DNA of 63,679 nucleotides, the filler included, from Nemertoderma westbladi (taxonomy: Eukaryota > Animalia > Xenacoelomorpha), in the NCBI GenBank assembly GCA_032718475.1. It is 4 parts of 4 records of this genome, joined end to end, with 100 filler letters (N's around TTAATTAATTAA, not from the genome) between each part and the next. Parts side by side here need not be neighbours in the genome. Positions count along the whole stretch, not along the records: positions 13,526 to 44,285 come from JAUCBJ010002082.1; 3 more parts are not named here. One strand, given 5' to 3'. Below are positions 1-57,800 of the stretch, piece by piece; within the stretch, counting starts at the first letter, position 1, and each line of letters starts with the position of its first letter. The position numbers and the translations under genes were made by a program. The notes beneath the pieces are model-generated. The model did no database searches and had not been told where the DNA came from. It saw nothing but the letters and a program-made list of their open reading frames with translations.

Positions 1-272
1 TCCATTTTACCGGTACACTTCACTTTACAATCAACTGTGTTATATCTTATTCTGACTCTATATTATACCCTTATGTTTATAAGAATTAAGTTTTATTTAC
101 TGTTTTAATATAATAAAATAAATATATTTCAAGGGCTAAGGGCCCACATTGTCAATAATCAACTGAATGTAAACAGAATTAATGAATTATTACAGCTACC
201 TATTTATGAAATGTTTTTAACAGTACAAAAGGTACCTAACTGCCTAACTACTAAATTACTATACGCACAAAA

Positions 273-1072
273 TTATTTAATTTTCAGGAACCCCCCGCTT
301 TCCAACACTGCTATACTTAAATGATCTACGTCTGTGGATAATCTCTTGTTAACTGCCCGGGGTCCCAATGATTGAATATACATACTCTCTAATATTAGCC
401 TACCGTGCAAGTCTGACACTCTCCCTATCACTGTTGCCTTATCCCATAATGGAATGTGTCCAGTAGCTACATGATGGCCCGACAACTCGGATGCTTTGGG
501 CCTACGGTGTTTAACATCGCCCTGATGCTGGGTCAGACGGACATCAAGACTGTATAAGGTTTGGCCTACATATATGTTGCCACAGCAACACGGTATCTGA
601 TACACTATACCTCTGGGTGGGTATTTCGGTTTATGGCCTCTAAGTAGGTATGATCTTAACGTTCTACCCCTAACCGTATATGTGCCGACATCATATTTCT
701 TACACATTCGTTCTAGAGGTTCTGTTAGTCCCTTTAAATAAGGCAGTCCTATATTGACTTCAGGGTGTTGTGGCTTTGTTGGTATGTCTTCACTGGTTAC
801 CTTAAGGCTATCAAAGGACTTATTACACTTTCGTAAGGAATTATAAATGACCCTAGTTGGATAACCATTGGACATAAGTGAGTCAGTTAACTGCGATTGA
901 GTGCGCCCTCTAGCGTCTCGATCCGAACATAATTTGTTAGTCCTATAGAATAACCCACTACACACACTTCTCTTAACTCTCGGGTGATGATTAGAGCTGA
1001 AATTCAAATAGCGATGGGAATGTGTCGGTTTGTGATATATGGTAGTACGGAATGTTCCTTTACTTAAAGTTA
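273..1072 (-). mobile_element. Penelope-like retroelement fragment (RT C-terminus plus GIY-YIG endonuclease)
   Basis: Reads FRTTIYHKPTHSHRYLNFSSNHHP...LPYLKGLTE...GIVYQIPCCCGNIYVGQT...RLTQH...LESMYI, the RT thumb plus GIY-YIG layout of Penelope elements. It is 5'-truncated where BEL sequence begins at about 1073. Confidence 0.92.
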
Positions 1073-2359: not shown

Positions 2360-2377
2360 CAGCATCTGGAGTGGGTG

Positions 2378-4088
2378 TGTGACTACATTATTTTATATTT
2401 GTTTTATTATTTTTATATTTATGTATGTATTATTAAGTAATTTTATTATAATCGTTTTCTTTAATTTTATTTAGTAGAATGTTATTTTAGCGATTATTTA
2501 GTAGAATTAGTGCAATATATACTCGTGTTTATTACTTAATTACTTATATTATATATTTAGTGCAACGGCGAGAAATAATTCTTTTTCTCTTTCCTTACTG
2601 TCCGTATCATATTATAAATACGTGACTACAGTAAGATGAAATATCCGTACTTATTAAAGTACAATAAAGCTCCTACTATACTCAAGTATTATCGGTAAGT
2701 AGAGTATTAGGAATGCAAAGTTCAGATCCTCGTGTCTCGGCTAAACCAAGCTCTGGGTAGACCTTGGAAACAACTTGCCTCTTCTCACTGACATTGCTTC
2801 TTGCAATATTGCTCTCATACCGTATATTAAATAATACATATAGTAGCGTGATGTCCCTTTAACAGTAGCGTAAAACGCAAAATAAATCTGTTAAACCCTT
2901 TGACCATCTGTAATTCTAGTCGATTAAGATATCGCGGCACCCACCGATATACTTGAAAGACAAAATTCTAGAATCAATGGTTAACGTCCCCAGACATGTT
3001 CTGGACTAAATCAGTGCCCATCTTAAATATTACATAGTTAATATTTATAAAAATCTATTAAAACAAATGTTATAATAGAGTAAATGCACAAAAATAAACT
3101 CTAAGGAGTTTGTAAACCGAGAAAATCTATAAATCAAGATCTGTTAAAATTTAGATCCTTTAAAAATTCTAGTCGATTAAGATATCGTAGCATTTACCGA
3201 TACTCTTAAAAGGACAAATTTCCTAGAATCAAGGATCTCAGTCCCTAGACATGCTCTGGAATAAAATTGTGCCTATTTTAATATTAAATAATAAAATTTA
3301 CGGGAATAAATTTAAATTCATATCTTATCATGAATTTGATAAATTGTTATTTTATACAATTTATAATATTCCCAAAATTCCATTAATTAATAGATCATGG
3401 GAGCGGAGATTCACCCTATTAAGTGTATTAGTGTGCGACAATCTCCAGTATATAGTCAATAACCGATAAATTTCATAAAATCATGTATAAGGGGGAATAT
3501 TGACAATTAAAGAATTACTATTAAATAGCATCCCAGATCTGTATGCATGAGAATTACCCTAATTCTACTGCTAGCTTTCCATAATGTCACCATGGCAACA
3601 ACCACGCCAGAATTAGAAGTGAGTTAAAAGAACAATAAAAAGCTTGCCCCATTGAATAGCATACGGAATAAATAGCGCACTGCTAGTATCCAGAGATACA
3701 TAATAATAACGTGGCATTCTGGAAGGCACTTGACTAACGGACAAATGGCCCGAATGTGTACAATTTGTGACAGTTGTGTGGAATTTGTGCGTTTATAGGT
3801 GAATGTTACTACTAAAGTGTGTTTACATTAGCGAGTCGCAGTTGTGAAAGTTACCCTGCCTCTGTAGCAAGAACCTGAAGTAATTCTGAGCCCTTGGGAC
3901 GGAGAGTGGAGTGACTCGCGCTGGTTGTTGTTGTCGTTGTGTAGCTACTATGTTGGCGATAGACACAGCGGCGACAGTACATCAGCGCTGAGGAGCTTGC
4001 GCTGTCCGGGGGCATTGAGGGGGAGGCAGCAACGACCGCTAGCCTAAATTATAATTAATTATAATATCGATAAACTCATATAGCAGCT
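2378..4088 (+). mobile_element. Long non-coding 3' region of the BEL family, shared with 22082-25266
   Basis: Follows purine-rich GGAGTGGGTG and starts TGTGAC. Aligns by eye to the reverse complement of 22082-25266 apart from the piggyBac-like insertion. Contains a diverged ~150-bp internal duplication (about 2887-3030 and 3140-3285). Confidence 0.8.
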
Positions 4089-14499: not shown

Positions 14500-16246
14500 A
14501 CCGAGTCGCGGGTGGCCGCGTAGGAACGCGTTCCTCGCGCACAGAACGCGGATCGCGAGACCCGGGCCCGGGAACGGGTGCCGTTCCACGAACGCTTCGA
14601 ACAGACCGAGGTCCCGTCCCTGTTGTCGGACCTGCAATGAAAGAGGCAGAAGGAAATAAAAATGACTTAAATATAAATATTTATTTATCTTAATTGTGTT
14701 AATCAATAAACATGTTTTGGTATAAAATAAATTAATTTGAAGAGAACAGTTCATATATAATTAAGAGAGATACACCTCCAGTAGAGGTAAATAGGTGATT
14801 ATATTATATAATATAAATAGAAATCAAAACTTAATTAAAAAATAACGGAGTAAAAGTAAAAAAAAAAAGATTGAAAACTTAGGAGATAAAGAGTGGCAAT
14901 CCCCTGGGCCAGCAGACACGTGGACGTGTCCAACCCGAGACGCGACAACTCGTCCTCGATGACCCGCATAAAGGTGTCCCCGATGATCCGTCGTTTATCC
15001 TCCGGCTCCACGACGTCACGCAATGCCGGCGTCTCCCGGGAACCACCAACGGTGGTCCGAGCCGAGTAGAACTCCTCGCTGGCGTCCAGATATCGGACCT
15101 TGAGACCCAGGCCGTTGAGGGCGCGGACCACCTGGGTCGACTCGTCTAGTCGCATGAACCCGTTGTTGATGTGAACCGCGATGATGGAGTCAGATGGGAT
15201 GGCCTTGTGGAGCAGCGCAGCGCAGACAGTGGAGTCGACCCCGCCACTAACAAGGACAATCACCTGTGAAATAGAAATAGAATTTCCTTAGACTTTTAAT
15301 ACCACACTGATTTGGTATTAATAATGAAGTTCCGCCTTATCGGAAGTGACACTCTCCCAACGGTACCTTTTTCCACCGGTACCGGAAGTGACGTCTCTCC
15401 GTTTCCCTTACTGATACCTGTGTAACGGAAGTGACGCCCCTCTGCTTCGCCGTTTACTTTACCTTTGGACCGGAAGTGACACCACTCTATTTCCTTTACC
15501 TTTCTGCCGGAAGTGACGTCTCTCCGTTTCCCTTACCTTTGTACCGGAAGTGACGCCTCTCCGTTCCGCCGTTTCCCTTACCTTTGTACCGGAAGTGACG
15601 CACCGCTGTATCTCGGCGGTACAACTCGCTTCTCGGTTATCCATAGTAAAGTTACCGGTGCAACCCGAAACTTTGTACAGGAAGTTCCTCATCATGACCC
15701 GCCCGTTGGTGGTGAGATCAACCTCGGGGTGGAACTGCACCCCGTAGAACGGACGCGATTCGTGTGCCAACGCCGCCACCATGTCGCCGGACCGCGCCAC
15801 AACCTGGTAACCAGGGGCAAACGAGGTAACCGTATCCCCGTGGGTTAGCAGCACCGACTGGTGGGCTTCCAGTTAACTAAACAGAGGACAATCCGTTTCC
15901 ACCGTAACATCGAACTGGCCATCTTCTCTTGCTTCTTTCTTCTCGACTTTGCCTTCGAAGATATATTGTTTATCAGTTGTAGTCCGTAGCAGATACCTAG
16001 AACCGGAATCCCCAAAGAGAATATACCCGGATCGCATCGTGGAGAGTCTGGTGACGTCACGCTTTCTGGGCCGCCCGATATAATGATCGCTTTGAAGCCC
16101 TTCCTATGTAGTTCCTCTGGGTCGGTGTTTAACGGTAGTAACTCGGTCCCAACGTTCAGCTCACGCACTTTACGATCTATAACTTTGCCGTATTGCGCTC
16201 CTGCGTCCAATAACGCTACAAACTCTGCTGAATGGCACGTCGACAT
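14500..16246 (-). pseudogene. GMPS: GMP synthase (glutamine-hydrolysing), disrupted multi-exon copy
   Basis: Exon 16246-15582 has LDAGAQYGKVIDRKVREL, GICYGLQ and GVQFHPEVDLT. Exon 15263 to ~14900 has VSGGVDSTVCAALL and PEDKRRIIGDTF. Exon from 14631 has [13 protein letters not shown]. Frameshift near 15965, in-frame TAA near 15875, the segment after LAQG is missing and the C-terminus is lost. Confidence 0.9.
15335..15600 (-). repeat. ~40-bp tandem repeats derived from the GMPS exon 1/intron 1 junction
   Basis: About seven copies of GTCACTTCCG, several continuing GTACAAAGGTAAGGGAAACGG. Confidence 0.85.
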
Positions 16247-17785
16247 AATTAATTACCGCTAATTCTGTAATTCAATTATTAACATACAATATTTGTAGGC
16301 CTAATTATTATAGTACTGTTCTGACTGTCTGAGGTTTTAGAATGAGCTGATTTCATTGGGAATGTTTATAAAATTGTGGTATTTTCAAAAATGGCCAATG
16401 TGCCAGTCGAAAATTTTAAGTGCCAGCCAGTGCACTTCTATTCCAGTACTGCAGTACTCTGGTCGGTACTGGTCCGGTAATGCAGTGTATTATTCTGTAT
16501 GTGGTATGTGCATTATACTGCACTACTGCGTTAGGCAATAGATTAATGCTGAGTGCATTATGCGTTACTGTGTTAGGCATCAATCAATGCCTTTTATCAT
16601 TATTACATTACCTGATTACCTGTGTTTATTTGACTATTTATTATCACCTCTCTCTACACGGGCTGGCAGCCACCCGGGCCTAATCTAATCTGGACATAGT
16701 ATCTGAATCTGTATGGAGGCCGTAGCAGTAGCAGTTACTAACATTTGTACATTTCGACGGGCGATATATTCAGTAAACCGGAATCTGTTCCGACTTCATT
16801 GTGCTATATGCTATAAATACCTCAAATTCCTCGGAGACCGCCAGAAAAATAATATACCGCCCATCGTCCTTCGAAATTCATGACGGAGAGTAATCAACAA
16901 AGGTGCGATATTTTTAAATGTCATATTCGTGATCAGCATCCCAAACCCCATATGGTCATAAAATCAACTTGTTTTCGTGGTGATTTTTCATTATCGTATT
17001 TTGACTACTTGTTTTTTTCGTGCTCCAGGGGCACAAATAACTGACTAATAACTAATACAACAACATGCCTAAGCCTATGTTGTTATATTACACAACTCTT
17101 CGATATGTTTGATGTAGAGGAATAAACCTTCCCAATGAAATCAGCACATTCTAAAACCTCAGTAGCCAAACTGTACGGCCAATTTACCACTTTTGAAAAA
17201 AGTGATACTTGCACTTTTGGTGCTCTTTTACTATCTATTGATAAAAAAATGAAAATAGTGCTTCTAATCTTGCTTCGATTACTAATAATGAATTAAACAA
17301 ACCAAAAAAGCATAGTATTATAGTTTAATGGTTATACCAAAGTCTTGAAGCAGCGGTGATGTATTTTGTGTACTTTTATCAATTCCGAAAGGTGTTGATA
17401 TGGTATGGGTGCCAGGAATGCCTCATATCTCGAAAACTACTGGAGCTATTAACTTTTTATTTGTCTCGTGTCAAAGAGGATATAATTTTAGTTAGGGACA
17501 AGTACTTTTCGACGCGCTAGACGTATATTTTCAGGGGTTTTATCTAAGAGACTGGCCCACTAAATTAAGGGGCTTTGCAGCAGCTTGGCGGGTCGTATAT
17601 ATAGTAGGTCATGGTACAGTCTTATTGGCCATTTAGAAGCGAGCCTTCCAAAGCTACGCTTAAACACTACTGGAAGACTTTGAGATTGCCGCACAGAGGG
17701 TGGCATTTATAGTTTTAGCGACAAGCCATGCCAAGGCGTCCGTATATCTACTAATGTACATACCGTATCTCTAGTAGGCCTACGC

Positions 17786-20412
17786 TGTGATGAAAACAAT
17801 GTTGTCTAATGCCAGTTATCAATGTTAAAGATATTGTACAACATAAACTGCACTCAGAATAATCTCAATTACTGCAATCCGCCTAAGTACCGGTAGCCCG
17901 TTATCAACCCCAACACCAATCAGTTCTAGTACAGCAGTACTTACCGTACCGGTATACAGTACATCAGTCTATTGTTTTTCAGTCCAGAAAATCGACTTAG
18001 ATCCTACTTTTTCCCCACATCTCCCGCAGTTTTTTCATAAAAACTTTATCATATTTTACTTTCAGTTTCAAACTGTTTCAGTCGGCTTCAACATTCCTCT
18101 ATATATCGTCTCGGTGGGTGCACTGTTCGCTGTGGTCTTGATAATTTCTTTGATGATGATTCTATAACTGAGTCTTCACTGTCTTCGCTGCTACTATCAC
18201 TGTCATTATCGTGCGTCGTCTCGTGAACAACTGGTTTCTCTTCTTGTCGGTAGGTCTTTCTTACGTCATTCATGTGTCTTCTGACTCCATTTACAACTAC
18301 GGCCCACTTGTCTACTGTTTCGACTCGAACCGGGCCTCTTCACTTCTTCCAGCATTTTACATGTTGTCCAGGCTTTACATAGACCCAGTCTCCTGGCTGT
18401 ATCTTGTGTAGTGGCTTCGTCGTGTCGGTGCTCGTTTGTCCTATTGCTGTTTTGATACCCGGTAGCTTGGTACGTCTCTCCGCTAACCCTCGGAAACACA
18501 ATTCCGTGGGGGAACCGTCTTCTCCTCTACTTGTGGTATGATTGTACCAGAAAGTTGACTGTTCTAACGTTTTCCCCAAGCGAGCCGCCCACGTTTTTAT
18601 AGTGCGGTGTACCCGTTCGACCGGGTTGCCCTGTGGTCGATACGCACATATGTATGATATGTTTACTTCCCATTTACTGAGGAATTTCTGGAACTCGTAG
18701 CTCCAGAATGCCGGTCAGTGGTCAGCCATCACTATGTCTGGAGGACCCAATTCTGTGAAGATCTGCTGCATTTCTCGCACCACATTGCAAGCATTCTCGT
18801 TGGTTACACGACGTATTATGGTATACTTTGTTGCACAGTCCTTTATTGACAGATACTGCCGATTTCCATATTCAACGAAGTCTATTGATAGCCGATTCCA
18901 CACTTTTGAGGCCTTTGTACTCCCAGTCTTCCAATTCAACGGACTCGGATCTATGCTGAAGCATTGCTGGCATTCCCGACATATTTGTTCCACCATTTGT
19001 TTGTCTATTACTTCTTTCAGTTCAACGTCGCAATGACACATCTCCAATGTTCTCTCGATACCCGGATGGAATATGTTATGAATTTCTGTAATCCGTTTTC
19101 GATGATCTGAATCTACTGTTTCTTTGAGCTGCATTGTTGCCACAGCTGCTGCTAAGGGTTTTCTTTGATTTTCTTCGATACCATAGGGTTCGCTATTGCC
19201 AATTTTTAACCAATTCTTCGGAACTCTTGTTAGCGCATCTGCTTTGTTTAAATGTGTGGGTACTTGACATGGGTGGATCTTTAAGTCAAATTGCTGGATA
19301 GTGTTAGCGATTATATCCAGCCGTCTTGCTATTAATTTCCGCGATTGTCCCTTTGTTCTGATGCATGTTCAGATGTCTGTTCCAACATTTCCATAGCCAT
19401 CTGTCTAACTTTCGCATCGACGACATTATCCCATGCCATTTCTGCACAGCACCGCTGAATCCATGCGCACGCAGGCCTGATCGATCCTGCTATCGGATAG
19501 TGACCACGCAACTTCCCGCACAGCGAATATATTTCTCGTCTAGTTATCGTATCCGACACTTCCGTTGGTACCTCCAAGTCGCGATTCCGCTGCAGCGTAC
19601 CAGTATGGTCTTCTGTTATGTGGAGTCCTAATACTCGGCTTCCATGCTCGATTTTTTTCGCTGGTTTAGTCATCAGTCCGTACTTAGTCAAATGGTCGCG
19701 CACTTTGCCAGTCGAAATGCGTTCTGTATCGACGTAGATGTCATCTCTGAAGTTGTTAGTTGCTTTCTTCACTTCTACATCCTTTGATAACACTTTCTCC
19801 ACTATTCTATCCATGATTTTGGGTGCTGGTCCTATCCCAAACCCCATTACTGTAACCAAGTACTGAGTCCCATGGTATACCACGGTTTGAAAGGGTCTCA
19901 ATGCTTCAGTAATTCCTACCTGCATATAGGCCCATTTCAAGTCTAAAAGCACTGTTTTATTTCCCATACAGCGCCACTTACGCATTTTTTCGTTACAGGC
20001 AGCCGCTTCGCGACCTGGCGAGTTTTCCACATGCTGGTTCAACTCTCTGTAGTCCAATATGGGGCGGACTCTTTCTTTCTTCGGTTCATATTTAGACATG
20101 ATTGGAATAGTACCTCGCACCGCACCGTGTTTATCTGGGTCGTATGGTACCATCCAACTTTGCTGTACCCACTCTTCCATCCCCGATTCGAACATCCGCC
20201 GATGTTCCGGACGAATTTTGTACTCTGTTGCTCTATTTTGCAGCATCAGCTCCGAGTTGTTCTTCCACTTCCACTCAGCAACCCATTTATATCCATCGTA
20301 GGTAGCGCTAAAGTCTGACTCATCTAATTCGATTACCGGATTAGAGAATGGTTTGGCAACTTTGGGAGAAATGAAGCTCGCTGCTGCTCCGACCAGTTCC
20401 TTTGTATCCCTG
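17786..20412 (-). mobile_element. Gypsy-like LTR retrotransposon, 5'-truncated and decayed
   Basis: RT RPILDYRELN...LDLKWAYMQV...MGFGIGPAP...FRDDIY; NKADALTRV; integrase HNIFHPGIERT...C..C, SIDF, AYRPQGNPVERVHRTIK. PPT GCGGGAGA is followed by TGTGGGG at 18019. LTR end at 17786 is tentative. Confidence 0.82.
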
Positions 20413-20549
20413 CCCTGCAAACATTTTACGTTAATTACGCTAATCTAACGTTAGACTTTAGTCTGTTTTAGGTTAGAAAAATAAAGTTATAAAAATAACT
20501 TAGAACAAACGTTTTCTAACGTCTTATAATCGTTTAAAAACTACATGTC

Positions 20550-26340: not shown

Positions 26341-29300
26341 TTATGCCTCTCGCTGTGTTAAAGGCCTACTGAATGCTTTCCTACAGGGTATGCAGTTCCT
26401 AAGAACTTGGTTCAGAGCTCTACAGGGTTTATAAAAATAATAGCGAGTTCGAATTTCGCTAAGAACTCGTTCTCTACCACCATGATAAAGTTTGCTGTGA
26501 ACATCTACAATCATCTTGACTTGTATTTCAAGATTTCTAATGAGGATGGGGAACTTAGTGTCAAAGGATAATGGAGCATTCGTTAATCTTCCTCCAACAC
26601 GTATCAACCCATCTATCATTGTGCTAGAGAAACGATCCCTTAAGCGCATCTGGGGATTTCTCAACAACAGGAAATACTTATCGGAATCCTCATAGCATTG
26701 CAGGAGTCTCAGCATCTGCTTGTTGGTTTCTTCATGCTCCTGATAACTGATCTTCTCCTTCAGAAACCTGTCGGATATCTTATATTTGGGAAGATCTTTA
26801 ACAACATGGACCTGCACCGATGTCAGCGGAGCGGTATCACTATTGGTCTTCGTCCCGGAGTAGTGATGATGAAAACATCTTTTTAAATATGTAACGGCCT
26901 TACAGAGCCGATTCCAGGAACTGTAGTGATGTATCGCTCTCTGCAGGAGAGGTGAGAGTCCTTGCGAGACGTCTGGTATTCCAGATTTCCAATCCTTCTC
27001 ACGGATTTCCACAACAGACTTATTTATGGCTGTGGGTTTCTGATCCAAAGCGTCGTCTCCGGAAGTATGTAGTACAGACAGATCTACCATAGGTTTAAAT
27101 AACTTCGATTTACTCGCCCGAGTTTTAGGTTTGACTTTCTCCGCTCCCTTGGCCTGTCTGATCTCTGCCGTAGTAAGATGAGGAGGCCATTCTTCTTCTT
27201 CTTTATAGAGTAAGTCGGGTCCACCTAACCAGTCTGGAGTATCTACCAGTTCTTGTGGAGTTGCTCCCCTGGAGGCGATGTCTGCTGGATTAATCGTTCC
27301 GGGGCAATGTCTCCATTGATCCATCGTCGTGCGACTGAGTATAATAGGACCAGACTCACGGGAGTTGCTGGTGAATTTAGTTAATCGAAATCCACCTCTT
27401 TTTAAGCACTCTACCATTCCTTTAGCGACATCAATGGCTTCTTCGACTGATGGAAGGGACTTTAGATTGTCGTCCATGTATATATCCCGTTTGATGTTGT
27501 CAATCACCTCTTTAGAGAAGGCTTCTCGGTTGTCATCCGCAGTGGTGCGCACCACTGAACAGGCGTTTGAAGGGCTTGAGATTATCCCAAAAGCCTGGAT
27601 GGTCATCCAGTACTCCACCGGTTTCTGGTTGAGGTCTCCTTCAGGCCACCACAGAAATCGTAGGCTATCTCGATCCCTATCCAGCGCCTTGACTTGTAAG
27701 AACATGCCTTCTATATCTGAGGCGAAAGTGATTGAATATTGTCTTAATCTTAAGAGTATTCCCAACAAGGATTGGAGTAAGTTGGGTCCGGGTAACAATT
27801 CGGAATTAAGGGATTGGCCCATGTAGAGGGCGGAGCCGTCAAACACTACTCGTACCTCATGGGGTTTACCGGATTTGGGAACGTAATGGTGAGTTAAATA
27901 ATACGTTCTCTCAGTTATAGGTGTTTCTTCTGGTACTCGCTCCGCATATCCCTTGCTAATAAATTTCTTCAACTGTGTTTGATACATTTCTTTAGTTGAA
28001 GAATTTGCCGTAAGGCGTCGATGTAGTTGAGCAATTCTTTTCTCCGCCAAGGGTCTGTTGTTTATGAACTTTGGTTCTCGCTTTCGGAAAGGTAGACCGA
28101 TTTCATATCTACCTTGATCTTTAAGAAAACGTGTAGTTGTCTCTTGGATCTGCTTGGCTCTTTCTTCTTCTACCGATAGGGCCTTATCGTAGGAATTGGG
28201 CTCTACAGCCTCTTGAGTAAAGAATCGTACGGCGTGTTCATCCCGAGTTTTGGCATTATAACGTTCAATGACGTCATTCAGTTCGTCGTTATAGTCGTCT
28301 CGTTCTGATGGACGAAGGAGCTGACATAAGTTCACTCGGTTTTGCCAAGTCTCGTTTACCTTAAGGAGATCAATGGTATTCTCCTCGTCGAACAGTTGGT
28401 GGACATCGTCATTATCTGAGGAGTATGGCGTTCCCTCAGTTGGATCGTCTAACTCACTGCTCTCAACTTCCCATTCTCTTACTTGATATACCTGATCTTT
28501 CGGTAATCTTTCCATGAGAGTTCTACGGGAAGGGCCAGTAAAGTACCAACCCACTCTAGTTCTTCCCGCATAAGCTTGTAGTGGTTGCGGTTGAGCAGGC
28601 CGTTTCTCCAATGTCTCGAGCGCTTCATGCACGTTTTGACCCATGAGTATTTGCACTCCAGGGTAATCGGTGTTGAATCTAGGTATTTCAAGCTGCTGGG
28701 TGAAATCGTCCTCATCCCAGTTATAAGGTTCCACTTGGCTGGTAGCGAAGTTCTTTATCGCCACCATTTTTACTGACCTTATACTATGTTCTCCTAGTTC
28801 ATCCTGGGGGGTGGACAACGCACCTACATAATAATCCGCTATTACTGTAGATTTCCAAACCTGCATAATTCCTGACATATTTAGCTTAGTTCGGAACTTG
28901 GGTTGTCCAGCAAAGATGTCTTCGGCTAGTTCTTTGTCGATGAATGTTCCTGTGCTACCGGAGTCAAGGAGGGCGTTCACTATATAACTCCTTTTAGGTC
29001 CGTGGACCCTTAACTGTACTACAGGAAATTCTCGGATTCCTACATTGGAAGTTGGCGCTTTCCAAGATGGTTGTCTGTCAGAAGTAGTTAGGGTGAGGTC
29101 GCTGTCTGTGTCTTTTTCATATGTAAGTGCTCGATACACTGCGGTATTTATCATGTAACAGGATTCGTCTTCGTCGGAGAATTCGTCCGTATAGAATCCT
29201 TCCATCTCAGAACTTTGGTCAGTGTCATTCACATCACTGAATTGGACATGTAGTTCGGACTCACTTACCTGACTCGGGCTGTTTCGCTCGAATTCAGTGT

Positions 29301-29868
29301 GCAACAAGATATGATGTTTCGCACCGCACTTTGCACACCTTGTGTCGGAGTAACAGGTTCGCCGTTGGTGTCCTTGTCTGAGGCAATTATAACATAACCG
29401 CTTATCCCACATGACTTCCCGTCTATCCGTTAATGATTTCTTTAGGAATTCATCACACACGTTCAAACGGTGGGGCCCGTCACACAGCGCACATTTCGGT
29501 TTGATGTTACTTACCTTATTTTGAGTAACGTTGTGCACACTCGTTCTTTCTTCGGGCTTTCTTACCTGAATTCTCTTAGGAGACGTAGGAGGGGTTTTTC
29601 TTACCTGTTCTCTCCTGTCATTGGTTCGAGACCTGAATTTACTTACGTCTTTGGGCGTTTTGTTGACATAATAAGATCTTTCAGTGTCTTTCCCGCTGTC
29701 CTCTCCTTGAGAAGCCTGGCTTTCGCCGTCGTCGGTATAACACACTGGTGTTACCTTTCTCCTAGAAACGGGTTTCTCACTTACCTTGTTTTCCAGTGTC
29801 TTCTCTCTGGACTGCTTTAGGAGCTGTAATTTCACTTCTCCATCTAAGAATGACATGAGATCAGCCAT
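26341..29868 (-). CDS. BEL gag C-terminus/protease/RT polyprotein, 1175 aa, most of RNase H deleted in frame
   Basis: LTKFTSNSRE is joined almost directly to TTMDQWRHCPG. A premature TAA precedes the integrase core. Confidence 0.85.
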   Translation of the reverse strand: MADLMSFLDGEVKLQLLKQSREKTLENKVSEKPVSRRKVTPVCYTDDGESQASQGEDSGKDTERSYYVNKTPKDVSKFRSRTNDRREQVRKTPPTSPKRIQVRKPEERTSVHNVTQNKVSNIKPKCALCDGPHRLNVCDEFLKKSLTDRREVMWDKRLCYNCLRQGHQRRTCYSDTRCAKCGAKHHILLHTEFERNSPSQVSESELHVQFSDVNDTDQSSEMEGFYTDEFSDEDESCYMINTAVYRALTYEKDTDSDLTLTTSDRQPSWKAPTSNVGIREFPVVQLRVHGPKRSYIVNALLDSGSTGTFIDKELAEDIFAGQPKFRTKLNMSGIMQVWKSTVIADYYVGALSTPQDELGEHSIRSVKMVAIKNFATSQVEPYNWDEDDFTQQLEIPRFNTDYPGVQILMGQNVHEALETLEKRPAQPQPLQAYAGRTRVGWYFTGPSRRTLMERLPKDQVYQVREWEVESSELDDPTEGTPYSSDNDDVHQLFDEENTIDLLKVNETWQNRVNLCQLLRPSERDDYNDELNDVIERYNAKTRDEHAVRFFTQEAVEPNSYDKALSVEEERAKQIQETTTRFLKDQGRYEIGLPFRKREPKFINNRPLAEKRIAQLHRRLTANSSTKEMYQTQLKKFISKGYAERVPEETPITERTYYLTHHYVPKSGKPHEVRVVFDGSALYMGQSLNSELLPGPNLLQSLLGILLRLRQYSITFASDIEGMFLQVKALDRDRDSLRFLWWPEGDLNQKPVEYWMTIQAFGIISSPSNACSVVRTTADDNREAFSKEVIDNIKRDIYMDDNLKSLPSVEEAIDVAKGMVECLKRGGFRLTKFTSNSRESGPIILSRTTMDQWRHCPGTINPADIASRGATPQELVDTPDWLGGPDLLYKEEEEWPPHLTTAEIRQAKGAEKVKPKTRASKSKLFKPMVDLSVLHTSGDDALDQKPTAINKSVVEIREKDWKSGIPDVSQGLSPLLQRAIHHYSSWNRLCKAVTYLKRCFHHHYSGTKTNSDTAPLTSVQVHVVKDLPKYKISDRFLKEKISYQEHEETNKQMLRLLQCYEDSDKYFLLLRNPQMRLRDRFSSTMIDGLIRVGGRLTNAPLSFDTKFPILIRNLEIQVKMIVDVHSKLYHGGRERVLSEIRTRYYFYKPCRALNQVLRNCIPCRKAFSRPLTQREA

Positions 29869-31485
29869 GGTAGGGTCTCGTCGTTGCTGTTACATCATAT
29901 ATAACACTTTCTTATCCCAGCGTGTACCTACTCCACCCTTCGGTAAGGTAGAGGCCACAGCTCCAATAACTATAGAACTCTGATATTCATGAGACTTACC
30001 TAGCCAATCTAATTGTCTACAGATCTCTTGAATCTCATCGGAAAACTCTATTATCCCGCTGCTAATGAACTTTCGGGGCGCTACCAATTTTGCATACAAA
30101 TACCTAGCTATGTTATTCCTATTACCATACCTGATGTTTAGGGTATCCCAAACTTGTCTTAATCCATCGGGATGTCCAATAAACTTTAACGCCATTAACT
30201 TGGGAGATCCTTCCAAGCACTCGATGAGGAATCTAAGTTTCTCTCCGTTAGATAGCACAGAGTTCTGTATGTTATCTTTGTAATATTCATTAAAAGGTAA
30301 CCATTTCATCTCATCTCCATTGAACTTGACGATCTCTCCCACCTTTACCGCTTGACGGGCTTCGGTTCTAGCCATTTGACGCGTAAAACTTTCTTGGGCC
30401 ATCGTGTTATTTAATATCGAGTTATCGGTATATAAATTTCTCGGATTATTATCAAGTCTATATGGAATATCATTGTCAACAGGTTTATAATTACCCTTAA
30501 TAGGGTTTACTATAGGAGTTTCCACTTCGCTAGCAGTATAGATGCGTGTAGGCTCCACACCTTGCGCATGAAATACTTCAGACCTAACAGGTTGACACAT
30601 TGTTACAGGGGGTGGTGGTATACCCTTTTGTGTATTTACTAATTTATTGCGTTCTAACGCGATACTTTGCTGCACTTCTTGCAACTCTAACCTACTTTCC
30701 CTTACTGTGCCCTTGAACTGCTTAACAGTCTCCTGCATCTGCCCGAGCAGGAGATCCATCCCCCGCCGTCTCTCATCCACCCACTCGACCGCCGAAGCAG
30801 GAGTCGCCAACGTTGTAGCGGGCGGACGAGGGACAACGGGCGACAAATCATTAATATTTCGCTCGGAGTCCAAGACATAAACTGTCTCATGGGCTGTTCT
30901 GCTGGGTACAGGTAGCTTAGTGCTATGCAAAGAGAATTTAGAGGTAGGTTCTGGGAGTACAGGTGTCTCTATCACCGAAGGGGTGGCTTCGAGAACAGGC
31001 CTAATTATTTCAGGCTCATCTACTATAGTAGGGAGTCTGTCTATTTTAATAATTTGGTCTATGGGTTCTGTACTACCTAAGTCGGTGCTAGTTAGTTGTT
31101 TTCGAACAGCTGGGGGGCAAATCAGGCAATTTCTGACGGTGGGACATTCTTCTACGTCTGCTAAGACGAGATCTATTTCCTCCGCCTTCAGGATCGGTGG
31201 TATCGCCTTCCTCAGATGATGTATATCCTTGACTAGCTGTTAACTGTTTATTTATGCAGTCTTGATTCTCTTGAAGATTTTCCAACTCTAGTTGGGTTGT
31301 TTCTTCAGATGCCCTCCGTTCTGCTTCTGCCACTGCATCTGCCGCTGCCACTACCGCCTTTCTTTCCGCTTCGGCCGCTGCCACTGCCGCCTTTCTTTCC
31401 ACTTCTACCGCCTTTCTTTTTGCTTCTGCCTCTGCCGCTGCCGCTGCCGCCTTTCTTTCTACTTCTACCGCCTTTCTTTCCGCTT

Positions 31486-33499: not shown

Positions 33500-35306
33500 C
33501 TAGACGTAGATAATATCGAATTTGTAATGCTTAGCCAATGAGTCGTTATCTAGAAGTTTGCCTGAGAACTTCATAGCATCGGTATCTGTTGCCAAAGCAA
33601 CAACACCTTTCCCTGGAGACTCCATGGTAGCTGGTTTCATTACCCCGAACCACGGACCGATGTACTTAATAAACTTATCTTCGTGTGGTTCCCAATGTCC
33701 GCTGTCAATCTTCCGTTTAAACTTCTCCACATATGACGTCATTATGAATCCGGGTTGTAACCCGACAACGACTACATTATGGGGCCGCAACTCAATGGCC
33801 ATCATCCGTGTCATCCTATCCAACCCGGCTTTGACCATACTGGCCGCGAGGCCGGTCCCGGCGTAGTAGTCGGGGTTGTCCCCACCGTCCGACGCCGCTC
33901 CTTTGCTCCGTAAATGCTTTATCTGTTCGTCCGATAAGTCGGTAGTGCTGACAATTAGACCGCCGCCCTTAGTAAGGGATATATGGATGGTAGCGAGACA
34001 ACAGGTTAAAGTACCGAAACAGGTTATTTATAATATACAGGCCTACATCATGTAGGGGAGAGAATGGGGGGGGGGGGGGGGGGGAATACCATCTCGGCGA
34101 ATTAATATCGCGTCTTAATGATAAATTATCAATTAAGTGAATGGAAAGAACCAGGTTACAGTGGCACTCAGTGTATTAATTAAAATTCAGTGACATCCCT
34201 CCCCCACAATTATCCACTTAATCTTCAGGGTGTCTCTCTGGGTTTGGGTGTAACCCCTCGGGAGGTTGTTTTTTAAAACATCTGAAAGACCGTGTTTTAG
34301 GTCAATACATCAGTTATTTGGTGTTATGTTAACGTGGGGAGGCTAAAAATGTACTGTCTCTATCTACATTTCACTAAAAACACCACTAGTCTCTTAATAT
34401 TTATTCTAATTTGTTGAAACTTTGTTGTCTTTTTTTGGAATGTACAAAAACACTCCAGCAGATCTTATAAACTATAATTTTTTAATTAAATTAATCAATA
34501 ATATTTGAACAAAAATTTAAAATCGTGCTGGAGTGATTTTCAAGATCCAAAAACCATTCAAATGAGCCATAAATTATAGAATTTGGGTACAAAATGACGG
34601 AGGAGTATAGTAATATGAAAATTTGAACAAGTAATTATTTGATAATTTCATTTAAAGTTTGACAATTTCCGCTCAAAACTGCCGACTTATTTGGAAAAAC
34701 AACAGATCGTTCTCATCGTTGAAATAAATGGATTGTATGGGATTGTTCGTCCTCTGACATTATGATAATTTGAATTTTTGACAATTTGTAACGAATTAAT
34801 TAGATTCCCAGCTCCCCACTGTTGTTACCTTATTGTAAAACTCATGTTGTCAAGCTACATTCACATCCCTGTTTTATCATCATTTTAGCAGCTAACGAAG
34901 AAGCGATGTAGTGAACATTCAGTCCACTGCTCGACATTCTACTAAACGTATCGATCGGCCATTCCCAGAAAGGCGATCCTAATTGACCGTTATACAATAA
35001 CCCAGTAGGGAAACAATGATTCACCAGAATATCCAATCGTTTCTCTTTCTCCTCTATCGATTTAAATACAGAAATTATGTCTTCTTCTTTAGAATGATCG
35101 CATTTAATCGCTGTGACTTTTCCGCCTCTCTTCGCCGCCTCTTCTACAACCTCATCCAACGACATCCCCGGTTGATCTGGTTTCCGTTCTTTCGTTCGCG
35201 CGGTTATGTAGACCTTCGCTCCGGCGTCTGATAGTTGGAGTGCGATTCCCTTTCCGATACCAGTAGAGGCTCCGGTTACTAAGGCAACTTTACCTTTCAG
35301 AGACAT
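33500..35306 (-). CDS. DHRS1: DHRS1-like short-chain dehydrogenase/reductase, two visible exons
   Basis: Exon 1 (35306 to ~34868) has VTGASTGIGKGIA, KCDHS, LDILVN and PFWE. Exon 2 (~33968-33500) has GLIV...KAGLDRMT...ELRPHNV...PG...GKGVVALATD. The splice donor is unresolved. Confidence 0.82.
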
Positions 35307-37309
35307 GATGTTTAAAAAGTAAACAAAAAAGAAAATAATAAGAGGAGAAATAGACAAAGACGATGATTTTTTAAATAACAAATTATGCTGAATCCGAATC
35401 TGATATCAGTTGTTCCATTGGTTGCAATATCAGTTGTTTTCGAGTTATTGGACACCTGAACGACTATCAAATACAAAAACATTTAGAAATATTCCGCAGT
35501 TTTTGGAATTAAGGCCTCAAAAGTATTTTATACTTTATTGCATCCAAATCTTTAAGCAATGACAAAAAATAAGTTTACTTTTGACAATGTAATGTTAAAG
35601 ATGTTTATATTATTGTACAATGACTAAATCGAAATAGATTTTTGACGACGTTTTTCAATCGACCTTTAAACTGTGCAATAAAATTGTATCATTGTTAGCA
35701 AAAATAGGGAAAAACAAACGTTTTATACAATAATTTGTGTTGACTGAATTTTGTTTCTAAAAACGTTATGGCGCATTTCGTATTATACAGTACGGTAAGT
35801 CAGTCCCGCATAATATTTTTATGTTCACATAAAAATTTGCACGGAATGTTTGTTTACATAATAACTCTAGAACTAAACAACTTATCGAAAAACCGATCTC
35901 AGATCCCGAAAAATCACTTTTTTACATCTGCATAATAATAATTATTTATTATATTAAAGTCATTCCCAAACAAAAAATATAACTGATGATAAAGATAGGC
36001 CTACACCTAGAAGGCAAAAACACCAACAACAAATAAAAAACAGTATACAGTACAGTAAATACAGCATATAATATACTGCGGGTTTTAATAGAATAGGCTA
36101 ATTGAACTGCCGAATAGACCCTATACTACTGTATGTACAAAATTATACGCACACACAGACCGGTCATCAACAAACAGAAACGTGATTGTCGCAAGTTTGT
36201 GGTGCTGCTTCCCTTTGGTTAGTTACAGAGCGTCTCTCTTCATTCATCTTTCCCCTTGAGAATACATTCAGCTGCGGAATGAAACCTACAATCAGCTGAC
36301 GTCTACGCCCATTTGCTTTTTAGTTTTTTTAAATGGTTTGGTCCTAGCATAACTACCGGTTGAGGTTTTTACTTAACGTGTTTCAAAAATAAAATAAATA
36401 TAATATGTAATTTACAAAATTTAGTTGAACATAACAAACAATGTTCAATGTGGCAACTAAATGAAAAATTTTAACCAACAGATATTCGAAACTGTTTAGG
36501 TTACTCAACAATGATGCAATAGTTAGTTGCGCAACATGTGTATGTTTATGTAATAATTACTAGATTAGCTATAATAAACTATAAAGGATCGACAGATGTT
36601 TTACTAAAGGTCTATCAATTATTATTCCATTAATTAATAATTAGCGAGAATACTGACGCTGTCCCCAGATGTTCCCATAATTTATTCTTATTATGTAATA
36701 AACGAAACTTAAGTAAACTATGAACATTTCTTAACTAATTAATATGCTTATGTATAGTGGTCCTTTTTCTCAATGGGAGCTATTTATTATGTTGCACATG
36801 GTGTTAAATATTTTATTTTTGGGAAAGTTCTACCCCACACCGTTTATATAACATACTAGTACACAAGTACATGCGCCGACACCAGTTCAAGTTTAAATTG
36901 CACTGCGGACACCAGCGCAAGTACCACTAGCGAAATTAGTAATCGGGTGTAGTTTCACAAATTCTAATAGCTAAGGTACCATACAAATAGCCGACACCAG
37001 TGCAAGTATCGCTAGTATCACAAGTGCTGGTACCGGGGTGAGTACTACAGTAGTACCGACACTGCAATGACCAATTAGATATAAGTATAGTCGAAGGACA
37101 ACATTGTTTAGTCATGACAACGTGTGAACATTGCTATAGATAAGAAATAAAATATTATAATATAAGCATTCTCATTGGATAATATTTGTTTAATAATCGC
37201 CGTGACAATGTGTGAAAACCTTGAGGGTATAGATAAAATAATTTTTTTGAATTCTTTATTCATTATATCATTTTTGTTTGGGAATGTCTTGTATGCAATA
37301 AAACAGAAA

Positions 37310-37822
37310 ATGTTTACTACATTGCAATCTGAAAGTAATTATTACTGCGGCGCTAATTCAATTATACCAATTAGAGTTGAGTTGTTATCCGCTACAGCGC
37401 GAGCACCAGTTTGTGGGCCTTATTGTCCCGCTGGAATAGATATTTTCAGCGCCGTAAATAGAACGATAGAGCCACACACGCGAATGCTCATTGGAACAGG
37501 CATTAAATTATATCTTCCACCCAATTTCTATGGAAGAATTTCTCCACCGTTCGCGCTATCGCAAATTGGGATTGATGTTCTGGAAGGTATATTAGATTCA
37601 AAACCGGCATGCGGGAATATAGATAAACTTATGGTTATTTTAATTAACAACTCACACCGAGAGTACACCGTATCTATTGGAGATAAAATAACCCAAATTA
37701 TCTTTGAACGGAGCAATGCTCCAATACTATATGTTTCTGAAGTTCGTACCGACGCCGAAGACCGTTTTAAGCTTCCAACGCTGGTATCGTATGAAAATGA
37801 AGTTAATTGTTCTTATTATTAA
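37310..37822 (+). CDS. Intronless dUTPase-like protein with degenerate catalytic motifs
   Basis: AGIDIFS, IGTGIKLYLP, YGRISP, GILDS, VILIN and GDKITQIIFE match the trimeric dUTPase fold. Likely start is the ATG at 37310. Confidence 0.82.
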   Translation: MFTTLQSESNYYCGANSIIPIRVELLSATARAPVCGPYCPAGIDIFSAVNRTIEPHTRMLIGTGIKLYLPPNFYGRISPPFALSQIGIDVLEGILDSKPACGNIDKLMVILINNSHREYTVSIGDKITQIIFERSNAPILYVSEVRTDAEDRFKLPTLVSYENEVNCSYY

Positions 37823-38364: not shown

Positions 38365-38586
38365 CTAATCTAATACATATACTATATATATAATCTAATA
38401 CATATACTACATATATAATCTAATACATATACTATATATATAATCTAATACATATACTATATATATAATCTAATACATATACTATATATATAATCTAATA
38501 CATATACTATATATATAATCTAATACAGTACATATACTATATATATAATCTAATACATATACTATATATATAATCTAATACATATA
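38365..38586. repeat. 25-bp AT-rich minisatellite
   Basis: CATATACTATATATATAATCTAATA repeated about eight times. Confidence 0.92.
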
Positions 38587-39177
38587 ACTTATATTTATAT
38601 AAAGTGAATTAGAACCAGATCATAATTATTACATTTATCATTGGAAATATATTGAATATATATACTGTAATTGGAAAACAAACTATATCTAATTGCATCT
38701 CATTATTATACATTAACTTTTCTTGAACTATAAGAAAGAAGGTTTATAGACCCGATGAATTAAACCTATTGAATCTTTGAATATCTCCAATGAAAGTAAC
38801 AATGTGTTGGCAAGCTGTATTTTTCGAGGTGTTTGTTATTATACATTTTATTATAAGAAGGGATCTAGGGGTCTATGAGATATTAATTTCAAGAAAAATT
38901 ACGCGATTCCTAAATTTGTACACTACCCGGTTAAAAAGTACGCATGTGATGGGATTAGTCCTACAATTGCGCCAATAAAAGATAAGTTATTTTCGGTAAA
39001 ATAAACTTATCATTCGAGGTTAAGACCCCTAGATCCCTTCTTATAATAAAATGTATAATAACAAACACCTCGAAAAATACAGCTTGCCAACACATTGTTA
39101 CTATCAATAATCAAAAATCAGGGGCTAATAAAATGGCAGCTGTCTTTGAAATTAATACTCCATATCTCAAGAACCTG

Positions 39178-39230
39178 TGGCCTAGTGGTTGTAGTCTCGG
39201 CTTCGGCCTCGAGGTCCCAGGTTCGAATCC
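39178..39230 (+). promoter_or_regulatory. tRNA-type Pol III internal promoter (A and B boxes), repeated every 412 bp
   Basis: A box TGGCCTAGTGG at 39178-39188 and B box GGTTCGAATCC at 39220-39230, with a GGC-TTCG-GCC hairpin between. No complete acceptor stem. Confidence 0.85.
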
Positions 39231-39233
39231 GAC

Positions 39234-39276
39234 ACCACGCTGATGAGACCCAGTAAGGTCGAAACGCGTACGTGGT
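39234..39276 (+). ncRNA. Minimal type I hammerhead ribozyme, copy 1
   Basis: Stem I ACCACG/CGTGGT; core CTGATGA; stem II GACC-CAGTAA-GGTC; GAAA; palindromic stem III ACGCGT; predicted cleavage after GUA at 39270. Confidence 0.92.
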
Positions 39277-39645
39277 TTGGAGAGATATGAGATATTAATT
39301 TCAAGAAAAATTACGCGATTCCTAAATTTGTACACTACCCGGTTAAAAAGTACGCATGTGATGGGATTAGTCCTACAATTGCGCCAATAAAAGATAAGTT
39401 ATTTTCGGTAAAATAAACTTATCATTCGAGGTTAAGACCCCTAGATCCCTTCTTATAATAAAATGTATAATAACAAACACCTCGAAAAATACAGCTTGCC
39501 AACACATTGTTACTATCAATAATCAAAAATCAGGGGCTAATAAAATGGCAGCTGTCTTTGAAATTAATACTCCATATCTCAAGAACCTGTGGCCTAGTGG
39601 TTGTAGTCTCGGCTTCGGCCTCGAGGTCCCAGGTTCGAATCCGAC

Positions 39646-39688
39646 ACCACGCTGATGAGACCCAGTAAGGTCGAAACGCGTACGTGGT
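39646..39688 (+). ncRNA. Minimal type I hammerhead ribozyme, copy 2
   Basis: Same sequence as copy 1. Confidence 0.92.
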
Positions 39689-40057
39689 TTGGAGAGATAT
39701 GAGATATTAATTTCAAGAAAAATTACGCGATTCCTAAATTTGTACACTACCCGGTTAAAAAGTACGCATGTGATGGGATTAGTCCTACAATTGCGCCAAT
39801 AAAAGATAAGTTATTTTCGGTAAAATAAACTTATCATTCGAGGTTAAGACCCCTAGATCCCTTCTTATAATAAAATGTATAATAACAAACACCTCGAAAA
39901 ATACAGCTTGCCAACACATTGTTACTATCAATAATCAAAAATCAGGGGCTAATAAAATGGCAGCTGTCTTTGAAATTAATACTCCATATCTCAAGAACCT
40001 GTGGCCTAGTGGTTGTAGTCTCGGCTTCGGCCTCGAGGTCCCAGGTTCGAATCCGAC

Positions 40058-40100
40058 ACCACGCTGATGAGACCCAGTAAGGTCGAAACGCGTACGTGGT
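40058..40100 (+). ncRNA. Minimal type I hammerhead ribozyme, copy 3
   Basis: Same sequence as copy 1. Confidence 0.92.
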
Positions 40101-40469
40101 TTGGAGAGATATGAGATATTAATTTCAAGAAAAATTACGCGATTCCTAAATTTGTACACTACCCGGTTAAAAAGTACGCATGTGATGGGATTAGTCCTAC
40201 AATTGCGCCAATAAAAGATAAGTTATTTTCGGTAAAATAAACTTATCATTCGAGGTTAAGACCCCTAGATCCCTTCTTATAATAAAATGTATAATAACAA
40301 ACACCTCGAAAAATACAGCTTGCCAACACATTGTTACTATCAATAATCAAAAATCAGGGGCTAATAAAATGGCAGCTGTCTTTGAAATTAATACTCCATA
40401 TCTCAAGAACCTGTGGCCTAGTGGTTGTAGTCTCGGCTTCGGCCTCGAGGTCCCAGGTTCGAATCCGAC

Positions 40470-40512
40470 ACCACGCTGATGAGACCCAGTAAGGTCGAAA
40501 CGCGTACGTGGT
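40470..40512 (+). ncRNA. Minimal type I hammerhead ribozyme, copy 4
   Basis: Same sequence as copy 1. Confidence 0.92.
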
Positions 40513-40881
40513 TTGGAGAGATATGAGATATTAATTTCAAGAAAAATTACGCGATTCCTAAATTTGTACACTACCCGGTTAAAAAGTACGCATGTGATGG
40601 GATTAGTCCTACAATTGCGCCAATAAAAGATAAGTTATTTTCGGTAAAATAAACTTATCATTCGAGGTTAAGACCCCTAGATCCCTTCTTATAATAAAAT
40701 GTATAATAACAAACACCTCGAAAAATACAGCTTGCCAACACATTGTTACTATCAATAATCAAAAATCAGGGGCTAATAAAATGGCAGCTGTCTTTGAAAT
40801 TAATACTCCATATCTCAAGAACCTGTGGCCTAGTGGTTGTAGTCTCGGCTTCGGCCTCGAGGTCCCAGGTTCGAATCCGAC

Positions 40882-40924
40882 ACCACGCTGATGAGACCCA
40901 GTAAGGTCGAAACGCGTACGTGGT
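40882..40924 (+). ncRNA. Minimal type I hammerhead ribozyme, copy 5
   Basis: Same sequence as copy 1. Confidence 0.92.
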
Positions 40925-41135
40925 TTGGAGAGATATGAGATATTAATTTCAAGAAAAATTACGCGATTCCTAAATTTGTACACTACCCGGTTAAAAAGTA
41001 CGCATGTGATGGGATTAGTCCTACAATTGCGCCAATAAAAGATAAGTTATTTTCGGTAAAATAAACTTATCATTCGAGGTTAAGACCCCTAGATCCCTTC
41101 TTATAATCCAATGAAAGTGGCGCTGTGCAATTAGC

Positions 41136-41825
41136 ATGCGAATCTCAGCTCAGCGGTATGAGCTCTGGCTCATACAAGAGCTTTGCTTAGCGTTGCACTG
41201 CTCAATTGGATTTTGCTTCACTTGTAAATTTGGATCAACCTACAATTACACAAATGAAAACGAAGATATCGAAAATAAGGTCCAATCATATATTAACCGC
41301 CTATTATTTGCAAACTTCGGAGACACAATCCCCTTCATTGTAAATCATTGCGAAGACCAATGCGGATTTCTAAGCATGAGATTCCTTGGATACGTCATGG
41401 AGAATGATGTTAAGTTCAAGGGTATGTTGGAATGGAATTCATACAGTTGCAAGTCGGGGGACAATGCGAATCCATGTTCTAACCCAGAAGGATTCCAATG
41501 CGAATCAGTATTCACTTCTCCTCAGGCGGCAGATCAAATACTGAATGGTTTCGGTGATCTTTTCTTCAAAGTGAAAGAAATTTACAAGAGTCAGATGACA
41601 CTCACAAAGGAAATTTGTCAATTTGATTGCTGTAACAGTACTTGCTCTGCTTTTGAATGGGACGCAGCTGACTCATTTACATCACGTCCAACTACCGTAG
41701 CAGCAACTACTGACAAGGCAACCACTAGCGTTGTCGATTACACCACGACGATGAATGGGTCTGCAAACAACATCTCATCAATGATACAACTAGCCGTGAT
41801 CATCACAATGTGTGTAATCTTTTAG
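41136..41825 (+). CDS. Cys-rich, probably secreted and GPI-anchored protein (Ly6/uPAR-like pattern)
   Basis: Moderately hydrophobic N-terminus, CFTC...C...C...CQFDCCN, a Thr-rich stalk, then NGS and a hydrophobic C-terminal tail. Open 229 codons. Confidence 0.72.
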   Translation: MRISAQRYELWLIQELCLALHCSIGFCFTCKFGSTYNYTNENEDIENKVQSYINRLLFANFGDTIPFIVNHCEDQCGFLSMRFLGYVMENDVKFKGMLEWNSYSCKSGDNANPCSNPEGFQCESVFTSPQAADQILNGFGDLFFKVKEIYKSQMTLTKEICQFDCCNSTCSAFEWDAADSFTSRPTTVAATTDKATTSVVDYTTTMNGSANNISSMIQLAVIITMCVIF

Positions 41826-56561: not shown

Positions 56562-56697
56562 TTACCAATATAATGTCACCTAACAATTGGCACCTAGCAT
56601 TTACACTGCCAGCCACAGGGAGAGATGCCAGCGCACAGCTCATCTCAGGGTAGAAGCTAGCATAGGAACAGGGGAAGGTAGGTTTGGCCAAGGGGAT

Positions 56698-57800
56698 ATG
56701 CAAAGCGGAGGCGATTTTGTTCTAGTGTCAAGCTTGGGGGAACCAATGAGACACCTCCAATGTTATATAGTGTCTGGTTGGTGATGTGTGCATTGAACTT
56801 GACACAATGAACCCGGCGTAGCATTCTTGTGAATGTGCCATCCAGAGATTTGGTGTCCTCAGCAGGTAGAGCCCAGCATGGACTCCCATAGAGGAGTACT
56901 GGAACTACTGCTGCTCTAAATAACCGGACCTTAAGTTTCCGATTAATTCTCGGTGACTTTCAAATCCTCGAAAGCCTATTCAAGGCTGCCCATGCCTTTC
57001 CCTTACGTATTCGAAGGCCCTCACCTGACTTCCGGATCCATGATCCCAGGTAACAGAAGTCATCCACATGCTCAAGCATAACATATTTTGAGCTTATGCT
57101 CATCCGATCAGAGACTTGCTGAGGACTTTCAAAGTTAACTGTCAAAATTTTGGTCTTTCTGGAGTTAATAAAAAGACCAACACTAGAAGCAGCATGTTCT
57201 AATGAGCTGAGGAGCCGTTGGGCTCCCTCTAGTGATTCTGAGAGTACTCCTAATTCATCAGCAAAGTCTAGATCAGTTAGGTACTTGGCAGGATTTCCTC
57301 GACTTCTGGAGCCAGTAGGTGGAGTTATCATCACCCCATCATCATTGTGATGATCCAAGGACATGCGTAGAACATAGTCAACAACAATTATGAACAAGAA
57401 TGGTGCAAGTGTGTCTCCTGGAGGACGCCCCATAACACTTCAAATGGTTCTGTGTCACCGCCAACAGTAGACACAAATGTTGTCGAACCATCGTATACTG
57501 ATCTGATTGCTGCAATAATTTCATCAGGAATCCCATATAATGAAAGTATGCTGAACATACGTGAGCGAGAGACTGAATCAAAGGCCTTGAAGAAGTCAAC
57601 AAAGATAACAGCCAGATGCCTGTCTTTCTTTTTTGATAACTCTTCAATTATCCTTCTAAGTGCCAAAAGGGGCTCCATGGTCGCACGACCTTTACGGAAC
57701 CCATTCTGATTTCCACGGAGCAGTCTCTCAATGGGATCCCTGATGCGATTTAATAGAATTGTATAGCTTTGCAGCAATCGAGATCAATGAGATTCCCCGA
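56698..57800 (-). mobile_element. RTE-like LINE RT fragment replacing part of the 3' LTR
   Basis: NQNGFRKGR, FVDFFKAFDSV, GVLQ/GDTLAPFLF, DLDFADE and FCYLGS; frameshifted. Confidence 0.9.

Follow-up and report, generated by a model that had tools for sequence, protein, structure and literature searches.

How did more than five identical hammerhead-bearing units come to stand in one row within an animal gene region, and from what kind of RNA were they copied? In this work we address this question for a locus of Nemertoderma westbladi (assembly GCA_032718475.1), examined in a window of 63,679 nucleotides that joins four parts of four genome records end to end; the insertion lies in the part taken from JAUCBJ010002082.1. 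Movement of animal retrozymes as RNA circles by the enzymes of Penelope elements is a proposal drawn from shared ribozymes, co-occurrence and similarity of the pLTR (10.64898/2026.07.22.740005; PMC7229834, where Penelope elements are put forward as the movers of metazoan non-LTR retrozymes). Combining the anatomy of the insertion with contigs from other sequencing runs, we arrive at a reading to which we give an even chance: a polymorphic retrozyme insertion made in one event, in which a reverse transcriptase/endonuclease of Penelope type made about five turns of a 412-nt RNA circle.

Results

Structure of the insertion

The insertion measures about 2.3 kb in total, is non-coding, and consists of a direct array (Table 1) with a period of 412 bp and a length of 2234 nt, together with a short inverted piece, the whole being enclosed by TCCAATGAAAGT, a 12-bp target-site duplication that occurs in two copies only within the window, at 38786 and 41107. 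A previous reading of the sequence alone had counted about 5.4 identical units without a real ORF, and both statements hold for the assembled sequence, in which 5.42 units with 0 mismatches are present and the longest ATG-initiated ORF of the unit encodes 36 aa on the plus strand and 44 aa on the minus strand. The flanking duplication that it had placed at 8-12 bp is fixed at 12 bp by an empty allele with a single copy of the 12-mer. Its account of the array boundaries proved right for the mid-unit end and wrong for a start at the left duplication, since 38795-38874 is an inverted piece of the unit. This piece agrees with the array at 80 of 80 nt, has one nucleotide (38874) in common with it, and reaches 55 nt beyond the 3' end phase of the array. 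Both outward ends of the insertion are 3' ends of the element, at unit position 174 on the right and 229 on the left, while the truncated 5' ends meet head-to-head. The zone of unit 174-238 also contains the most A/C-rich 30-nt window of the unit and probably represents the start zone of reverse transcription. Sequence features taken from PMC7229834 and 10.64898/2026.07.22.740005 as those of non-LTR retrozymes are found here, namely tandem non-coding units within 150-450 bp, complete type I hammerheads in two or more successive units, a duplication longer than 4 bp, and no LTR. An AT-rich 25-bp tandem repeat occupies 38366-38599, 190 bp to the left of the insertion. A match to the Rfam model MIR8007 (E 4.9e-12) was rejected, as it reflects the hairpin of the inversion only.

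Table 1. Features of the insertion and of its first repeat unit, in window coordinates.
Feature	Position	Strand	Remarks
Left duplication copy	38786..38797	+	last 3 nt overlap inverted piece; single copy in empty allele
Inverted 80-nt piece, 5'-truncated	38795..38874	-	exact reverse complement of unit 150-229, head-to-head with array
Direct array, 5.42 identical 412-bp units	38874..41107	+	non-coding; last letter is unit position 174
Sole sense-strand T4 run per unit	38990..38993 (unit 117-120)	+	possible weak Pol III terminator needing read-through
A/C- and A/T-rich zone, unit 174-238	39047..39111	+	holds both outward ends and the 3' ends of many other copies
Degenerate tRNA-like head, unit 1	39175..39241	+	box A 39178-39188, box B 39220-39230; five copies, every 412 nt
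Type I hammerhead, unit 1	39234..39276	+	helices I, II and III of 6, 4 and 2 bp; helix III contains the palindrome ACGCGT
Cut-to-cut monomer, the first of four complete ones	39271..39682	+	predicted strongly self-paired RNA
Right duplication copy	41107..41118	+	first base common to array

These ends bear on a further explanation, mobilisation of an ordinary tRNA-derived SINE by an RTE- or L1-type LINE with twin priming as the source of the inversion, which we consider very improbable. No poly(A) or simple-repeat 3' tail is present at 41107, where the array ends in mid-unit directly at the duplication, and the unit has no match to the LINE pieces in the window (best other match E 0.9). In twin priming, the start of the inverted piece adjoins the stopping point of the direct piece; in this insertion 184 nt separate the two (unit 229 versus 413), and the inverted piece begins within the 3'-end zone of the family. 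What such an origin would account for is the tRNA-like head, the 12-bp duplication and the occurrence of LINE-type reverse transcriptase pieces in the window (RVT_1, 56963-57783), and the schistosome elements discussed below have themselves been termed SINE-like (PMC6765202; PMC2770079).

Ribozyme, promoter boxes and unit RNA

A descriptor for type I hammerheads identified five sites in the window, all inside the array and on the plus strand. The earlier claim of one full hammerhead core per unit stands, with the complete motif in 5 of 5 full units and predicted cuts every 412 nt, at 39270/39271 (after unit position 397) and after 39682, 40094, 40506 and 40918. The descriptor matched 1 of 5000 shuffled units and the pair of box A and box B was found in 0 of 5000, which excludes a chance origin for both the hammerhead and the box pair. 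In a comparison with the Rfam hammerhead models, the check named in the sequence-only reading, Hammerhead_HH9 scores 26.6 bits (E 0.00038) against a cut-off of 52, and no Rfam model matches at its gathering score.

Directly 5' of the hammerhead, box A at unit 305 and box B at unit 347 form a putative Pol III promoter. They lie in a tRNA-like head that ARAGORN sees only at a lowered threshold (-ps80), no tRNA being reported at the default setting, and whose cloverleaf is broken in the T stem. In its anticodon-like loop (40853-40854) the window reads GG against CA in the family majority, so that the source tRNA cannot be named from the window copy. Each unit also carries a single run of four T residues on the sense strand, possibly a weak terminator for Pol III; sense-strand T runs as a whole are not depleted relative to chance (P 0.52).

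The cut-to-cut monomer is predicted to fold strongly, both as a linear RNA (z -5.2, with 0 of 100 shuffles as good) and as a circle (-106.4 kcal/mol, z -5.05, 0 of 60 shuffles). Helices I and II of the ribozyme are predicted at a probability of 0.76-1.0 and helix III at 0 in the monomer fold; animal hammerheads whose cleavage takes place between paired copies, as dimers within a tandem transcript, are described with the same architecture (PMC4209133). A search of metagenome and viral contigs for the box B plus hammerhead pattern returned 0 stretches, and the pattern of the hammerhead core was found in metagenome contigs at no fewer than four loci (L001-L004), with 30 of 31 core letters in common and nothing else. 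The cores at these loci sit in repeats of about 900, 1395 and 1560 bp, and at L002 and L003 they are adjoined by telomere-like hexamer runs, resembling telomere-associated non-coding hammerhead elements.

An empty allele and an abundant family

Contigs of runs X1-X5 were compared with the window, part of which is represented in 7 of 10 runs. The empty site was recovered in a 963-nt contig of X4, which covers 38612-38797 (its positions 726-909) and 41107-41825 (its 19-737) with the 12-mer shared between them, and whose loose end behind 38797 is the window sequence from 41119 onward. The insertion is therefore polymorphic and recent, being absent from another sample, and the recency claimed in the sequence-only reading is borne out. 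The filled left junction is matched by a 53-nt contig of X3 with 0 differences, evidence that is weak because its 30 and 23 letters on the two sides fall under the 31-letter bridging rule.

The unit belongs to an abundant family, with summed depth ratios of unit to flank of 3242 (X1), 6400 (X3) and 70 (X4), figures that express abundance and not copy number. Sense-strand 3' loose ends, which pass into long stretches unrelated to the unit (median loose length 173-255), are concentrated at unit 237-238 in at least 21 contigs of X1, at least 22 plus 10 of X3 and at least 4 of X4. A second pile near unit 174-190 coincides with the edge of the query and is hence less sure. The expectation that copies end in random phase is contradicted by the first of these clusters and probably also by the second. 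Among the contigs listed and with the query edge left aside, 5' loose ends are single and scattered. In X1 and X3, joints between opposite strands and a loose end in inverted orientation also occur in other copies.

At 40760, 40791, 40853 and 40854 the window units differ from the family majority, and these rare letters are common to all five units; the window letter at 40853 makes up at most 0.28% of the depth in X1, 0.04% in X3 and 0 of 931 in X4. Letters in the loose ends suggest two further differences, at unit 168 and 175, where the inverted piece reads like the array. Since all units and the inverted piece carry letters that are rare in the family, the simplest reading points to one variant template from which both were copied. 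A closed 411-nt unit contig (5 differences, depth 13.8) occurs in X5, a run that bears the label of another organism, is RNA by guess only and did not cover the flank. This contig was set aside as evidence for a circle; it may stem from a circle, from tandem DNA, from contamination or from a sister species.

Perfect identity would also be seen in a collapsed consensus, and the array may have begun as a shorter insertion of one to two units plus the inversion that was lengthened by unequal exchange, or its unit count may have been inflated or homogenised by assembly. We regard this as quite unlikely. It draws on the local amplification proposed for retrozymes (10.64898/2026.07.22.740005) and on the depth in X3, where contigs with the window's letter at 40854 reach a summed depth of 18.2 against 11 for the filled-junction contig and five units predict about 55, a weak check in that contigs drop rare variants. 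In X1, however, letters other than the majority one at 40853 account for as many as 923 depth units, compared with 45-120 per flank haplotype, which leaves room for five units if X1 carries the allele, and a site that is still polymorphic would have allowed little time for expansion.

Neighbouring genes and elements

The host genes in the window comprise a GMP synthase (14835-16252, minus strand), an SDR resembling DHRS1 (33500-35405, minus) and an intronless dUTPase-like ORF (37166-37822, plus); the best protein matches reach 70% for the GMP synthase and 52% for the SDR, with neither a fluke nor any close named relative among the matches listed. Much of the window is filled with broken pieces of LTR retrotransposons and LINE-type elements (26341-31239, 18340-20444 and 56657-57783, all on the minus strand). 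An ORF at 41136-41825 (plus), whose ATG lies 17 nt behind the right duplication, encodes 229 aa, among them 14 cysteines and a stretch rich in Thr, has hydrophobic ends, and shows many differences between samples. Its product may be a surface-anchored protein; searches for a homologue and for a Pfam family returned neither.

A further ORF, at 273-1124 (minus), scores 0.96 to HTH_animal/GIY-YIG clusters, and we read it as the probable 3' part of a Penelope-type element. Pfam called no family for this ORF. Within window positions 1-3000 no hammerhead core was found, and between the unit and the DNA surrounding the ORF (window 1-2600) there is no similarity (best E 0.16) and no shared pLTR.

Discussion

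The features that identify the likely enzyme are the head-to-head inversion, the 55-nt extension at one end, the long duplication and the fixed internal 3' ends, which match published insertions and on that ground argue for a Penelope-type protein. Penelope insertions have been described as direct copies with an adjacent inverted 5'-truncated copy, duplications of 8-10 bp and a 31-bp tail at one end (PMC3846280; PMC8557442), and purified Penelope protein cut and extended both strands, beginning synthesis at two internal positions of a stem-loop rich in A and C (PMC11167929). The extension is longer here, at 55 nt (64 to the common end), versus 30-40 nt in print.

The nature of the template is constrained by the place at which copying begins. 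As this place is situated upstream of the promoter, the product of a cut linear monomer could not exceed about 250 nt and would contain neither promoter nor ribozyme, whereas the copy present here crossed the cut site five times and, unless the array grew later, must have been made from a circle or an uncut multimer. The sequence-only reading had a reverse transcriptase copying several turns of such a circle or multimer in a recent event; the recency is confirmed by the empty allele, and a template of more than unit length is retained as the best reading. For a circle, one variant molecule and the read-through of one T4 run would suffice, with no matching donor array. In such a scheme, Pol III would start near unit 297 in a tandem donor and read through one T4 run, two neighbouring hammerheads would pair through their palindromic helix III and release a monomer, and a host ligase would close this monomer into a circle. 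A Penelope-type protein would nick both target strands 12 nt apart, both nicks would prime inside the zone of unit 174-238 to give cDNAs of 2234 nt and 80 nt, and the two cDNAs would be joined head-to-head. Several observations weigh against this reading: the X3 depth check, which fits fewer than five units, the lack of similarity between the unit and the surroundings of the ORF at 273-1124, the missing Pfam call for that ORF, the longer extension, the undepleted sense-strand T runs and the broken T stem.

The same enzyme could instead have copied a long linear read-through RNA from a tandem donor of uniform units, an RNA that had been cleaved a single time, at the 5' end, and was otherwise uncut. 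We hold this alternative to be unlikely. The array starts 15 nt to the 3' side of the cut site, a proximity expected by chance in about 4% of cases; this counts against a circle and is what one would expect of a linear RNA cleaved at its 5' end. Uncleaved RNA was the main substrate of the anole Penelope protein in vitro (PMC11167929), cutting may be slow given that helix III is absent from the predicted monomer fold, and 1 of 9 frog retrozyme dimers was cleaved in vitro (10.64898/2026.07.22.740005). Such a template would nevertheless demand that five T4 runs be read through and five ribozymes left uncut, as well as a donor of at least 6 units, all carrying letters found at 40853 in at most 0.3% of the family. 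Copying from a circle is the reading that we retain, and its fullest form, a promoter-bearing circular RNA parasite caught just after its jump, with the Penelope enzyme having completed five turns of a single variant 412-nt circle at one nick while a second copy was begun at the other, is offered tentatively, at somewhat less than an even chance.

With respect to known systems, the element is best classed as a non-LTR retrozyme built like Sm-alpha but residing in an animal other than a schistosome; its mover would be a Penelope-type enzyme and its template most likely a circle. The sequence-only reading had proposed an undescribed family with its own promoter. The box pair in five units agrees with the second part of this proposal, and the family is new, but its overall design is already known: in the SINE-like elements of schistosomes, which often form tandem arrays, a Pol III promoter precedes a type I hammerhead, and cutting leaves this promoter 3'-terminal on the monomer (PMC6765202). 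Compared by description, Sm-alpha and Sj-alpha of Schistosoma are alike in exactly this tandem order and promoter position, in the tRNA-derived head (PMC2770079) and in the thousands of copies. They differ in that their unit measures 335 bp (PMC8490949) as opposed to 412 bp here, that the host here is probably not a schistosome, and that Penelope-type ends, present in the Nemertoderma insertion, go unmentioned for them in the accessible parts of the literature searched.

The non-LTR retrozymes of coral, mussel and axolotl share with the present element tandem non-coding units of 150-450 bp, a type I hammerhead, low GC, long duplications and a self-paired fold (PMC7229834). They seem to be promoterless according to a 2020 review (PMC7761336), whereas both boxes occur here, and RNA circles have been shown for them, whereas a circle of the present element is a prediction. 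Endonuclease-bearing Penelope-like elements and derivatives such as MRC1 resemble the insertion in tandem plus inverted 5'-truncated copies, the duplication, the one-ended extension and the internal start of reverse transcription; unlike them, the insertion has no ORF, a tRNA-like head, a longer extension, and no partner pLTR in window 1-2600. In a literature search of partial coverage, with most subscription papers, Repbase and supplements outside its scope, we found neither a tRNA-headed retrozyme outside schistosomes nor a retrozyme insertion combining Penelope-type ends with an empty allele; the supplements of PMC7229834 and 10.64898/2026.07.22.740005 could list such families.

To the existing proposal this locus adds the footprint of an insertion: the site is seen both filled and empty, the ends are of Penelope type, and rare letters mark the template. 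With priming upstream of the promoter, promoter and ribozyme would be transmitted only by templates that extend beyond the cut site, which would make tandem copies the fertile form of the element. As the family is active and numerous, a single long-read genome would allow one to count what proportion of insertions run across the cut site and whether their units are clonal, and the locus offers a clean test of the rolling-circle model, which is as yet unproven. The insertion may also alter the expression of a host gene, sitting as it does 17 nt before the ATG of the 229-aa ORF. If the fullest form of our reading is true, it would provide allele-level evidence of rolling-circle retrotransposition for animal retrozymes, and a second origin, outside schistosomes, of the design that couples a tRNA promoter with a hammerhead.
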